DNA of 64,000 nucleotides from contig NZ_JBDSCX010000003.1 of assembly GCF_039920825.1 (NCBI RefSeq), forward strand, positions 25,385 to 89,384. Reading direction: 5' to 3'. The notes under the pieces were generated by a model. It was not told the DNA's origin. It searched no databases and saw only the letters and a program-made list of their open reading frames with translations. Positions 10,171 through 14,476 of the stretch are shown here, in pieces. The position numbers and the translations under genes are program-made. Positions within the stretch are counted from its first letter, which is position 1. Each line of letters opens with the position of its first letter. The DNA comes from Luteolibacter sp. (GTDB taxonomy: Bacteria > Verrucomicrobiota > Verrucomicrobiia > Verrucomicrobiales > Akkermansiaceae).

Positions 10171-11643
10171 ATGCCCGATCCGGTTCATGCCCTCTATCAA
10201 GCTCGCGCGTACCCGGCCGTCAGTCATCCGTCGACCGATCCGGCGTCCACGGCGGTCGCGGCAAAGTTGGCGGGGCTGGACGTCACGCCGCCATCGCGGG
10301 CCCGGATTCTGGACATTGGATGCGCCTCGGGGCAAAACCTGCTGCCACTGGCCGCAAGGTGGCCGGGCAGCCGTTTTACCGGGATTGATTTTTCAGAAAC
10401 GGCGATCGAAGAGGCCCGCGAAATCGCGGGTCTTGCAGGGTTGACGAACGTGGAGTTCATTCATGCCGATCTGCGGGATTTCGATCCGGGCGACGCGGTG
10501 AGCTACGATTTCATCATCGCCCACGGCGTTTATTCCTGGGTGCCGGATGAGGTGAGGCAGGCGTTGCTGGATTTCTGCGGCGCGAAACTTTCCAGCAACG
10601 GAGTGGCGCTGATCAGTTACAACACTCTTCCCGGGTGGTCGCTGCGAAAGACGATTGCCGATCTGACGGAAACGCTGATTCGGCGGCCCATTGCCAAACA
10701 GATCGGACAAGAGCCCGAAGCGATTCTGGGGCTTTTCGCCACGGCGGCGGGAAATCACACCCCTTATGCCCGGTATCTAACATCGGTGTTGCACGACATG
10801 TTCGGAAAGGGCGACAACGCGCACGTGTTCGATGATTTCGCGCCGATCAATACGCCTAGTAACTTCCTAGATTTCACGGATCACGCGGGCCGGTCCGGTT
10901 TGCGGTATCTGGGCGAGTCCCGGCTTGCCGAAGACTTTCCAGCCTCGCTGGCTCGCGAAGCTGCGGAAATTCTCAAGCCAATGGCAGGTGATCCTTCCGC
11001 GCTCCAACAGACCATCGACGTGCTGACGAACCGCACGTTTCGCAGCTCGCTGCTGTGCCGCGCGGATGCGCCGGTTCAGAGCCGGGTCGCGACGGCCGAC
11101 ATCCTCGATTTCTCCATCAGGACTCCGCACGCTTTCGAATTAACCTCGGATGGCGCGCGTTTGCTGGGGAATGCGGGTGAGGAGCTTGCCCGATTCGTCC
11201 ATCCGGCGGAGGTGGCGTTTTTCTCCGCTTTATCGAAGACCCGGCCCGAATCGGTGCCGGTTCACGAAGTGATCGCGAACATGGCGGAGAATTCGTTCGA
11301 TGTCTCCGGAAGCGTGCCATTGCTCGTGCGGTTGGTGATCGACTCGGCCCGCCGGGGGCTCGTTTTACTGCGAACCGAACCGGTGCGGTTTGATGCGGCA
11401 CCACCCGCATTTCCCAATCTCGGCCCGCTGCGCCTGCTGTCTGCTAGAAGAGGCAGGGCGGTGGTGGATACTTATCATTCATTCAGCGAACTCGATGATT
11501 CACGGAGAAAAATCGCCGCCGCGATGGACGGTTCGCGCTCGGCGGATGAATTGGCGGCTTTGGCGAAGACGATGCTGCCGGATCTTGATTTCCTTGCATG
11601 GCTCCGTCATCTCGCCGCACGGGGAATGTTTGCCGGTTGTTAG
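10171..11643 (+). CDS. Class I SAM-dependent methyltransferase with methyltransferase regulatory domain (PKMT-like)
   Basis: ILDIGCASGQN, FTGIDFS, YDFIIAHGVYSWVP, ISYNTLPGW, NRTFRSSLLC. Start likely 10171. Confidence 0.85.
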   Translation: MPDPVHALYQARAYPAVSHPSTDPASTAVAAKLAGLDVTPPSRARILDIGCASGQNLLPLAARWPGSRFTGIDFSETAIEEAREIAGLAGLTNVEFIHADLRDFDPGDAVSYDFIIAHGVYSWVPDEVRQALLDFCGAKLSSNGVALISYNTLPGWSLRKTIADLTETLIRRPIAKQIGQEPEAILGLFATAAGNHTPYARYLTSVLHDMFGKGDNAHVFDDFAPINTPSNFLDFTDHAGRSGLRYLGESRLAEDFPASLAREAAEILKPMAGDPSALQQTIDVLTNRTFRSSLLCRADAPVQSRVATADILDFSIRTPHAFELTSDGARLLGNAGEELARFVHPAEVAFFSALSKTRPESVPVHEVIANMAENSFDVSGSVPLLVRLVIDSARRGLVLLRTEPVRFDAAPPAFPNLGPLRLLSARRGRAVVDTYHSFSELDDSRRKIAAAMDGSRSADELAALAKTMLPDLDFLAWLRHLAARGMFAGC

Positions 11644-13859
11644 GAGAAATTCAACGCGTCCATGTCGAAGACCACGGTGACATCTTCAGGCAGGCTGGTT
11701 TTTGCAAGGATGGCTTGAACGTGGTTTGTCAGCGGCCGGGCACGGTGGGAGCGCAAGGTGATCTGGAACCGAAATTGGCCGTGGGAGCGGATCAGCGGCG
11801 AGGGCAGGACCTCGCCGAGGGTGATGCCGTTAGGAATATTTTCCGCGAGGCGGAGATGCAGGGTTTGCAGGGTGAACTCGGCGCGACGCTCGTGGGTGGA
11901 GCGGCTTGTTAGCACGGCGCAGTGTGCGTAGGGCGGGAAGGAGAACTGGCGGCGGAACTCCATTTCCTGTTCGGAGAAACCGTCGAAGTCATGTTTGCGG
12001 GCGAACTGGATCGATGGCGAATGAGGGGTGAACGTTTGGACGATGACTTCGCCCTCGAGATCGCCACGACCCGCGCGACCGGCCACCTGGGTGACGAGCT
12101 GGAACGTGCGCTCGCCGGCGCGGAAATCGGGGACATGCAGGCCGAGGTCGGCATTCAAAATCCCAACGAGCGTGACGTTGGGGAAATGCAATCCCTTGGC
12201 GATCATCTGCGTGCCGATCAGGATGTCGATCTTGTGCGCCTTGAATGCTGATAGCGTATCCCGCAGCGCGTTTTTCCGGCGCATGGCATCCGCATCGATG
12301 CGGGCGAATTTCGCTTTTGGAAACACCTTTGCCATTACCTCCTCGACCTTCTGCGTGCCGTAGCCTTGCAGGAGGATGTTGGGATCGCGGCACTCGGGAC
12401 ACTTGCGCGGGACGATGGATTGATAGCCGCAAACGTGGCAGACCAGCCGTTCGTCGGTGCGGTGATAGGTGAGAGCGACGGCACAATGCGGACACTGGCA
12501 GACATGGCCGCAGGCGGTGCATTGCAGCGAACGGGCGAAGCCGCGGCGGTTGAGAAAGAGGATGGCTTGCTCGCCTTTTTCCAGCCGTTGTTCGAGAGCG
12601 GTACGGAGCTTGTCGGAGAGAATCGCGGGACCGCCCTTGTGTTTGGTTTGTTCCAGCCGCATGTCCACGACTCTAACCAAAGGCATGGAGGCGCCGTCGG
12701 CGCGCTGGTCGAGCCGGAGAAGATCGTATTTGTCCGTGAGCGTGTTGTTCCACGATTCCAACGATGGAGTGGCAGAGCCTAATACAATCGCGCAAGGCTC
12801 GAAAGCGGCCCGCAAAACGGCAACATCGCGGCCATGGTAGCGCGGGACGTTTTCCTGCTTGTAGGTGTTCTCGTGTTCCTCATCGACGAGGATCAACCCG
12901 AGGTCGGGCAGCGGTGCGAAAACGGCGGAGCGCGCACCGATGACGATGCGGGCGATTCCCTTTCGGATGCGATGCCATTCATCGAAACGCTCGCCTTGAG
13001 AGAGATTGGAGTGGAGCACGGCAACGTGGTCCTGCATCGCGGCGAAGCGGGACTTGAACCGGCGGACGGTTTGTGGTGTTAGGGAAATTTCCGGAACGAG
13101 GACGAGCACGGTTTTTCCGAGATCGAGCGCGTGTTGGGCGGCTTGCAGATAAACTTCGGTTTTCCCGGAGCCTGTGACGCCGAGCAGCAGGATGGGTTTT
13201 GATTCTTTCGGGTTGGCGACCGCGGCGAGAACCACTTCGAGCGCGGCGGCTTGACCCGGGTTGAGTTCGAGCGGCTTGGACTCGAGGATTTCATCGACGT
13301 TGTCGGCGTCCGGATCGCGGCGGACTTCCTCGGCCTCGAGTCGGAGCAGGCCGGCCTTCTCCATCGATTTCAAAGCGGCGGCATTGCCATCGCCGAGGTC
13401 GGCGACGGCCATCCGCAGATCGGGAGCATGGGCTAACAGCGAGAGGATGGCAAACTGGCGCGGCGCGCGTTTTTCCAATTTCGCGAGCGTCTCGGGATCC
13501 GGCGCTGCATCCAGTACGGCCACCCGGCGGGTCTTCGCGGAGTTTTCCTCCGATCGCACGCCTTCGGGCAGAACCGAACGAATGACCGACTCGATACTGG
13601 AGCCGTAGTAGTGAGCGATCCATTCCGCGGTGCGCAGCAGCACCGGCGTGATGAGTGGCTCCGGGTCGATGAGCGATTCCAGCTCGCGCAGGGCGAAATC
13701 CGCCTGCTCCGGCTCGCCGGTGGAGAGCACGGTGCCGGTCGCCGATTTCCGCCGCAGCGGAATACGCACGCGGCAGCCCGGACGCACGTTGAGTCCTGCC
13801 GGAATGGCATAGTCGAAGACGAGCTCCGAGGGGCCGTCGATCAGGACACGGGCGTTCAC
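11640..13859 (-). CDS. priA: Primosomal protein N' (replication restart helicase)
   Basis: GVTGSGKTEVY, VPEISLTPQ, DEEHE, LGSATPSLES, CxxC motifs, GTQMIAKGLHFP, QVAGRAGR. Start GTG 13859 or TTG 13895. Confidence 0.97.
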   Translation of the reverse strand: MNARVLIDGPSELVFDYAIPAGLNVRPGCRVRIPLRRKSATGTVLSTGEPEQADFALRELESLIDPEPLITPVLLRTAEWIAHYYGSSIESVIRSVLPEGVRSEENSAKTRRVAVLDAAPDPETLAKLEKRAPRQFAILSLLAHAPDLRMAVADLGDGNAAALKSMEKAGLLRLEAEEVRRDPDADNVDEILESKPLELNPGQAAALEVVLAAVANPKESKPILLLGVTGSGKTEVYLQAAQHALDLGKTVLVLVPEISLTPQTVRRFKSRFAAMQDHVAVLHSNLSQGERFDEWHRIRKGIARIVIGARSAVFAPLPDLGLILVDEEHENTYKQENVPRYHGRDVAVLRAAFEPCAIVLGSATPSLESWNNTLTDKYDLLRLDQRADGASMPLVRVVDMRLEQTKHKGGPAILSDKLRTALEQRLEKGEQAILFLNRRGFARSLQCTACGHVCQCPHCAVALTYHRTDERLVCHVCGYQSIVPRKCPECRDPNILLQGYGTQKVEEVMAKVFPKAKFARIDADAMRRKNALRDTLSAFKAHKIDILIGTQMIAKGLHFPNVTLVGILNADLGLHVPDFRAGERTFQLVTQVAGRAGRGDLEGEVIVQTFTPHSPSIQFARKHDFDGFSEQEMEFRRQFSFPPYAHCAVLTSRSTHERRAEFTLQTLHLRLAENIPNGITLGEVLPSPLIRSHGQFRFQITLRSHRARPLTNHVQAILAKTSLPEDVTVVFDMDALNFS

Positions 13860-13919
13860 TGCCCGGAGCCTGCCCGCCGGAACCGGGCTGGCCAAGATTC
13901 AATTCTTGATCTGATGAAT

Positions 13920-13947
13920 TGTTCGCATGAAAATGTTCTTGTGAACA
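13920..13947. promoter_or_regulatory. Tandem Verrucomicrobia-type LexA (SOS) boxes
   Basis: TGTTC-GCAT-GAAAA (13920-33, one mismatch) abutting a perfect TGTTC-TTGT-GAACA (13934-47). TGTTC-N4-GAACA is the reported Verrucomicrobia LexA consensus as I recall it. Confidence 0.8.
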
Positions 13948-14011
13948 CTTTTTCCTTGCCGCGATCTGGATCCCTGTGTCAATTTGCACACGAAATTAGC
14001 CACTCGATCCC

Positions 14012-14476
14012 ATGAAAGACACCGTCCTCGATTCCTCCCCGACCACCGAACGTGCCGTCGAATACGCGATCTACAAACCGAACTCCCGCGGTACCGGTGG
14101 TGTGGTTCGGTTCGGCCTGAACAAGGCGAAGGCCTCGCTCTTTGTCGATGCAACCAACCAATCCGGTGAAAAGCAATTCGACTGGGAAAACAAGATCACC
14201 ATGAAATGGGGCCTGTCCGATCTCGGTACTGTCATCGCAGTGCTTCAAGGCCGCGTGCCGCAGGCGAAGCTCTTTCATCAGTCGGAAAAGGCGAACAGTG
14301 CCTTCGAGCTGACACGCCAGGATGACCCGGAGCGCGCTCCCTATCTGTTGACGATTTCCCGTCAAAACTCCGCGGACAAAGCCCTGCGGAAAATCACTCT
14401 CCCCCTCAGCCACGGTGAAGCCGCCATTTTGGAAACCGCGTTGCAAACCGCGGTGACCCGGCTGATCGGATGGTGA
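14012..14476 (+). CDS. Whirly-like putative ssDNA-binding protein (154 aa)
   Basis: YAIYK, GEKQFDWENK, LSDLG, KLFH and ITLPLSHGEAAILETALQTAVTRLIGW parallel recalled plant Whirly motifs in the same order. Confidence 0.7.
   Translation: MKDTVLDSSPTTERAVEYAIYKPNSRGTGGVVRFGLNKAKASLFVDATNQSGEKQFDWENKITMKWGLSDLGTVIAVLQGRVPQAKLFHQSEKANSAFELTRQDDPERAPYLLTISRQNSADKALRKITLPLSHGEAAILETALQTAVTRLIGW

Follow-up and report, generated by a model that had tools for sequence, protein, structure and literature searches.

A predicted verrucomicrobial-type LexA operator upstream of a Whirly-like gene in Luteolibacter

The window, by which we mean the whole 64,000-nucleotide stretch of Luteolibacter DNA analyzed here (C3:25385-89384 of a 6.76-Mb assembly from rhizosphere metagenomes, with 58.6% GC in 91 contigs), carries two divergent genes, priA and a Whirly-like gene. 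On the ORF map, the intergenic region between them is 152 bp long and holds two boxes that resemble LexA-binding sites. The features of the locus are these:

11640 to 13859, minus strand: priA, replication-restart helicase, with PriA_3primeBD, DEAD, Zn_ribbon_PriA and PriA_C domains
13867 to 13895, minus strand: putative priA promoter, TTGGCC (13895-13890), 17 nt, CAGGCT (13872-13867), then 7 nt to the GTG
13920 to 13933, no strand assigned: box 1, TGTTCGCATGAAAA / tgttcgcatgaaaa, TGTTC-GCAT-GAAAA, one mismatch (C13 to A)
13934 to 13947, no strand assigned: box 2, TGTTCTTGTGAACA / tgttcttgtgaaca, a perfect TGTTC-TTGT-GAACA LexA-type palindrome
13949 to 13961, plus strand: T-tract (13949-13953) and -35-like TTGCCG (13956-13961) of the Whirly promoter
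13980 to 13985, plus strand: -10-like CAATTT, 18 nt after the -35
14012 to 14476, plus strand: Whirly-like gene, 154 aa; Pfam PF08536 Whirly, 30.6 bits against a cut-off of 23

Box 1 directly abuts box 2, with 0 nt between them. Box 2 starts 78 nt upstream of the Whirly ATG at 14012 and ends 64 nt before it, and its end lies 8 nt upstream of the conserved Whirly -35. On the other side, the start of box 1 is 61 nt from the priA GTG at 13859. An earlier note on this DNA had described two abutting boxes at spacings of about 64 and about 60 bp from the two genes, and we confirmed their sequences, their coordinates and these distances (64 and 61 nt). The note had also seen no second perfect copy in the window; our pattern search of the whole window agrees, with no further perfect TGTTC-N4-GAACA besides box 2. 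The sole other near-match in the window is CGTTCCGAAGAACA at 2571-2584, with one mismatch and nothing pointing to function. Counted at one mismatch or fewer, the window has 3 sites against 1.8 expected, which is not significant alone. The significance of the boxes comes instead from the small number of perfect sites in the genome (seven, including those at lexA, recA and two imuA genes), from the exact abutment and from conservation among orthologues.

The gene downstream of box 2 encodes a protein of 154 aa that we assign to the Whirly family (PF08536). Compared by sequence with solved structures, it matches AtWHY2 (4kop_A, E=1.8e-6), 3n1h_A (1.2e-5) and 1l3a_A (1.8e-4); StWHY2, WHY1 and p24 also match. 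Since the next gene converges on it, the Whirly-like gene is monocistronic. Plant Whirly proteins bind single-stranded DNA and suppress error-prone repair of breaks in organelle DNA (PMC4758235), and published accounts describe the family as essentially confined to plants or eukaryotes. With the plant organellar members (AtWHY1/2/3, StWHY2 and p24 of PBF-2) the protein described here shares the PF08536 match as well as the sequence matches to WHY2, WHY1 and p24. Unlike them, it is bacterial, lacks a transit peptide and stands under predicted LexA control. Among sequencing runs containing this sequence there are no RNA runs; only rhizosphere metagenome DNA runs match.

A search of the whole 6.76-Mb genome returned only seven perfect copies of TGTTC-N4-GAACA, box 2 being one of them, and 80 sites with one mismatch. 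Five of the other perfect sites lie at the following positions:

C58:28320, 15 nt upstream of lexA (lexA1)
C42:23025, 74 nt upstream of recA
C84:35115 and C88:23200, upstream of two separate imuA-imuB cassettes
C38:261166-261179, 16 nt upstream of a D12-class Dam-like DNA methyltransferase

The set of seven thus comprises lexA, recA, two imuA-imuB cassettes, the Dam-like methylase, the Whirly-like gene and one site without a clear gene. In both cassettes imuB matches the IMS family. The region around the Dam-like methylase looks prophage-like, with small ORFs close by. LexA1 itself (C58:27691-28305) has both expected halves, the winged-HTH domain PF01726 (LexA_DNA_bind) and the self-cleaving peptidase PF00717 (Peptidase_S24), each at 73.9 bits. 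Erill, Campoy, Kilic and Barbe reportedly defined TGTTC-N4-GAACA as the LexA-binding motif of Verrucomicrobia, along with the SOS regulon, in 2016. The earlier note had named the same motif and expected a genome-wide scan to find it at lexA and recA. It is present at both, and at both imuA-imuB cassettes; because the perfect sites lie directly upstream of lexA and recA, absence of the motif from these promoters is excluded. With only seven copies in the genome, box 2 is not a dispersed repeat.

The genome encodes a second LexA paralogue, of 202 aa, about 2.4 kb past the end of the window (C3:91831-92439; L002 1447-2055). It has LexA_DNA_bind and Peptidase_S24 domains, and its own promoter carries GAAC-ATTT-GTTC, a LexA palindrome of the Gram-positive type and not TGTTC-N4-GAACA. 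A search for GAAC-N4-GTTC gave no genome-wide enrichment (136 found, 92 expected). We assume that LexA1 rather than this paralogue is the binder of box 2, given the perfect box in front of lexA1.

To judge whether the boxes are conserved, as the earlier note had proposed to check, we gathered Whirly orthologues from 30 relatives and 80 GTDB genomes, which belong to Verrucomicrobiales of the Luteolibacter/Akkermansiaceae type. Across 75 non-identical Whirly promoters the box lies at -72 to -88 from the ATG, most often at -77/-78, with no mismatch in about 70 promoters. In these orthologues the ten arm positions of box 2 hold 1.8-2.0 bits, and the four spacer positions, at about 0.1-0.9 bits, are essentially free. 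When we took the 250 bp upstream of every Whirly gene (27,176 bp in total), we counted 82 perfect and 45 one-mismatch sites; the rest of the same loci, 522,564 bp of flanks, had 0 perfect and 3 one-mismatch sites. The density of perfect sites is thus about 3000-fold higher in the upstream windows than in the flanks, and 82 sites against none excludes a chance origin.

Not every relative has this arrangement. In one clade (L025-L030) the box has been relocated to -18 from the Whirly ATG and not lost. In L025, the one sequence that we read, a CTTGCG -35 stands upstream of the box and the box covers the -10/+1 region, as in lexA. By its layout the promoter in this clade is a rebuilt one in which predicted LexA control is retained. 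Whirly loci of the Prosthecobacter clade (L097-L112) are without the box or have a degenerate remnant only; two of them, L101 and L109, show a degenerate TGTGC-N4-GAACT at the operator position. The loci of this clade share another conserved element, a CAGCAnnTGCTG palindrome that precedes a CTTGTCA -35, in the region about -60 to -100 from the ATG. A PF08536 scan of 300 genomes across the phylum returned only four weak, distant homologues, with 28-29% identity and from other verrucomicrobial families, and none of the four has the box. The predicted SOS regulation of the Whirly gene is therefore lineage-specific, as the box is absent from both the Prosthecobacter clade and the distant homologues, and SOS control outside this lineage is unsupported.

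The orthologues also locate the Whirly promoter. The sequence cTTTTTnCTTGC is conserved immediately 3' of the box in Whirly orthologues and recurs at recA within the genus. In 56 of 74 orthologous promoters, TTGnnn is followed 16-19 nt later by an nAnnnT hexamer; shuffled sequences gave a mean of 17.6 and a maximum of 28. Transcription would then start at about 13992, with a leader of about 20 nt, and relative to this putative start box 2 occupies about -45 to -58 and box 1 about -59 to -72. Both boxes therefore precede the conserved promoter (TTGCCG, 18 nt, CAATTT), which puts the operator immediately 5' of the -35. The earlier note had placed the promoter elsewhere, with TTGATC (13906-13911) as a -35 and the -10 under the boxes. 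That hexamer is present but holds about 0.1-0.2 bits among the closest orthologues, and we discarded this promoter in favor of the conserved -35/-10 pair downstream of the boxes.

We compared this arrangement with recA and lexA in relatives from the genus. At recA, nearly all loci examined have a perfect box at -58 to -79, in the layout TTTTT-[box]-TCTTTTTnCTTGC, as at Whirly. At lexA, a perfect box at -25 to -31 is followed by C and a TGTTCA half-site. A T-tract with CTTGC comes 8-9 nt after the box at Whirly and recA, and about 26 nt before the box at lexA. Because it precedes the box at lexA, this element belongs to the promoter (a UP-like tract plus the -35) and not to the operator. One regulon therefore has two operator layouts: at lexA the box covers the core promoter, and at recA and Whirly it precedes the -35. 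We also considered AAA-N-box-N-TTT as an extended LexA motif and rejected it, the upstream flanks at recA and lexA being T-rich and not A-rich. The local promoter grammar (T-tract-CTTGC as -35, CAnnnT as -10) and the two layouts should help to predict regulons in a phylum that has received little study.

On the opposite strand, the likely start of priA is GTG 13859. The frame from TTG 13895 to this GTG is broken by +/-1 indels in many priA orthologues, which, together with TTGGCC behaving as a -35, rules out TTG 13895 as the start. The distance from TTGGCC to the GTG is 35-38 nt in 41 of 47 loci, CAGGCT/CACGCT is conserved, and the whole conserved arrangement reads aaatgaayC-TTGGCC-N17/18-CAGGCT-N7-GTG. 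A recognizable form of the element is also found in at least three priA loci away from Whirly. It looks like a promoter whose transcript would be leaderless. From the priA -35, box 1 is 24 nt further upstream, at about -61 to -74 for priA, and this placement casts doubt on direct repression of priA.

The earlier note had put the Whirly-like gene and/or priA in the SOS regulon. The part about Whirly is supported by the motif at lexA, recA and both imuA-imuB cassettes and by the box conserved in about 70 orthologues; the part about priA is not supported. One could imagine a shared bidirectional operator, in which LexA represses Whirly through box 2 and priA through box 1, and priA would have joined the SOS regulon in this lineage. 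Both boxes do lie in the divergent intergenic region, and within the closest subclade box 1 keeps a constant 24-25 nt from the -35-like TTGGCC of priA. Box 1 is also found in 21 of 49 loci where priA is adjacent and in 3 of 26 where it is not, but this association is confounded by phylogeny. On the priA strand, a sigma-70-like match runs across the boxes; the bases that it needs lie in spacers and flanks that differ between orthologues, so it is not conserved, and the conserved priA promoter leaves box 1 far from its core, on the upstream side. In 25 relatives in which Whirly is absent or not next to priA, there is no perfect box within 300 bp of priA, and the only one-mismatch site in these 25 promoters is at -247. 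Depending on the locus, the nearest box lies anywhere from 14 to 140 nt from the priA promoter, but its distance to the Whirly ATG is constant. The box is also retained in about 26 Whirly loci without a priA neighbor. The fixed Whirly distance, the box kept without priA and the boxless priA elsewhere assign the operator to the Whirly gene. We consider the bidirectional arrangement quite unlikely; priA is probably no LexA target.

If the operator serves Whirly, the question becomes whether one box or two are bound. Box 2 may be the only LexA site, with box 1 an unbound A-tract or UP-like element (AAA, at -4 to -2 of box 2) that happens to follow a chance TGTTC. Box 1 is perfect in none of the 75 loci and found only in the closest clade, and more than half of the orthologues have box 2 alone. 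In every case the right arm of box 1 reads GAAAA, and the A at position 13 coincides with an A-tract that is kept even in loci without box 1, whereas all recA and lexA sites examined keep the C there. Other observations speak against an unbound element. Among 32 loci picked solely by at least 76% Whirly identity, 21 have TGTTC-N4-GAAAA with one mismatch, 4 have two mismatches and 7 have five to seven, a bimodal distribution (1-2 against 5-7). The arms hold 1.1-2.0 bits (0.9 at the base adjoining box 2), against 0.2-0.6 in the spacer and 0.1-0.2 in the upstream flank, which are randomized; the TGTTC arm and the G at position 10, at 1.1-1.4 bits, are conserved at an exact offset of 14 nt, sometimes 15 nt. 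Paired sites 14-15 nt apart also occur at lexA and at two secretin genes of this genome, and the second, weaker site 15 nt away at these promoters makes pairing a recurring design. An unbound box 1 thus strikes us as unlikely, and we think there is a good chance that box 1 is a functional weak site, probably an auxiliary operator weaker than box 2, whose mismatch may be a compromise between the constraints of a LexA site and those of the A-tract. Of the tandem LexA boxes in the earlier note, box 2 is perfect and conserved, and box 1 is always imperfect. It is very improbable that a different regulator (the second LexA, for example, or an unrelated factor) recognizes the palindrome in place of LexA1, or that the palindrome is a chance or repeat sequence. 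The gene for the second LexA is indeed near, but its promoter carries a different palindrome, and co-occurrence of the TGTTC-N4-GAACA motif at lexA1, recA and imuAB is a LexA signature; the counts in the flanks and in the genome speak against chance and repeat.

Our preferred reading, to which we give a probability of a little under 0.9, is that box 2, helped in the closest clade by the weaker box 1, is the operator through which LexA1 controls the Whirly-like promoter. In undamaged cells, LexA1 on box 2, and cooperatively on box 1, would keep the Whirly promoter down. The operator does not overlap the -35 and -10 hexamers, and for this reason simple occlusion is not the self-evident mode of repression. 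LexA1 would probably act by blocking upstream contacts (UP element and alpha-CTD) and by crowding the -35 of a promoter that has weak hexamers and a T-tract. Upon DNA damage, LexA self-cleavage stimulated by RecA would release the promoter, allowing the Whirly-like protein to be produced along with RecA and the ImuA-ImuB mutagenesis cassettes. We infer LexA binding, repression, its exertion from an upstream operator and induction by damage alike from the DNA sequence. Taken together, the conservation and the company of the box indicate that the locus is a real verrucomicrobial-type LexA operator and the Whirly-like gene a predicted new member of the SOS regulon, very likely switched on by DNA damage.

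Dual SOS boxes, overlapping or adjacent, occur in the colicin and lexA promoters of E. coli, where sites for LexA dimers lie about 14-21 bp apart, center to center. One of the two is often weaker, and the pair is thought to tighten repression and delay induction. The E. coli boxes have the motif CTG-N10-CAG and overlap the -10/+1 region; here the motif is another, box 1 is always imperfect, and the pair is found in one clade only. The SOS regulon of Verrucomicrobia described by Erill et al. in 2016 is closer: it is said to have the same TGTTC-N4-GAACA at lexA, recA and imuA-imuB, with paired or tandem sites at some promoters, as here. The present case differs in its target, a gene of the Whirly family of single-stranded-DNA-binding proteins, and in an operator upstream of the -35 and not over the core promoter. 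Proteobacteria have SOS-regulated ssb and further SOS genes that handle single-stranded DNA; here too, a single-stranded-DNA-binding protein is under LexA, divergent from a replication or repair gene. In that system, however, the fold is the OB-fold of SSB and not Whirly, and the neighbor is uvrA and not priA.

In literature other than the 2016 study of Erill et al., full-text searches for a link of Whirly to LexA or to bacteria, and for the motif itself, gave no relevant hit. The Whirly-like gene appears to be a new regulon member, with an operator that adds one more case to a published motif. The operator is ordinary, but its target is not, being a bacterial member of a family that is treated as plant-specific and that guards organelle genomes from error-prone repair of breaks. 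Membership of the small set of perfect sites is strong evidence, based on regulation, that the Whirly-like protein acts on damaged DNA, and it gives a testable entry into the ancestral function of the Whirly family. A bolder proposal, which we hold tentatively and with more doubt than conviction, is that bacterial Whirly is a core damage-inducible single-stranded-DNA-binding factor in Luteolibacter/Akkermansiaceae, kept under LexA through promoter rebuilding and functionally coupled to PriA-dependent replication restart, and that the break-repair role in plants was inherited from it. If so, the coupling to PriA would explain the recurrent head-to-head arrangement of priA and Whirly and the second box facing priA, and Whirly-dependent break repair in plant organelles would be an inherited bacterial function, not a plant invention.

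The genome holds further LexA-like boxes. Two paralogous TPR-secretin genes (about 840 aa, Pfam Secretin) each have two of them upstream, at C47:5721-5749 and C58:7813-7841. Both pairs, AGTTCATTGGAACA-c-TCTTCCCATGAACA and AGTTCATGCGAAAA-g-TGTTCACATGAACC, are near-consensus and have a spacing of 15 nt, and they could mean that secretion or pilus genes are linked to the SOS response. A one-mismatch box, TGTTCAAAAGATCA (C22:8001-8014), lies 16 nt upstream of an ORF for a RecQ-like helicase of 726 aa, which is a candidate additional SOS gene.
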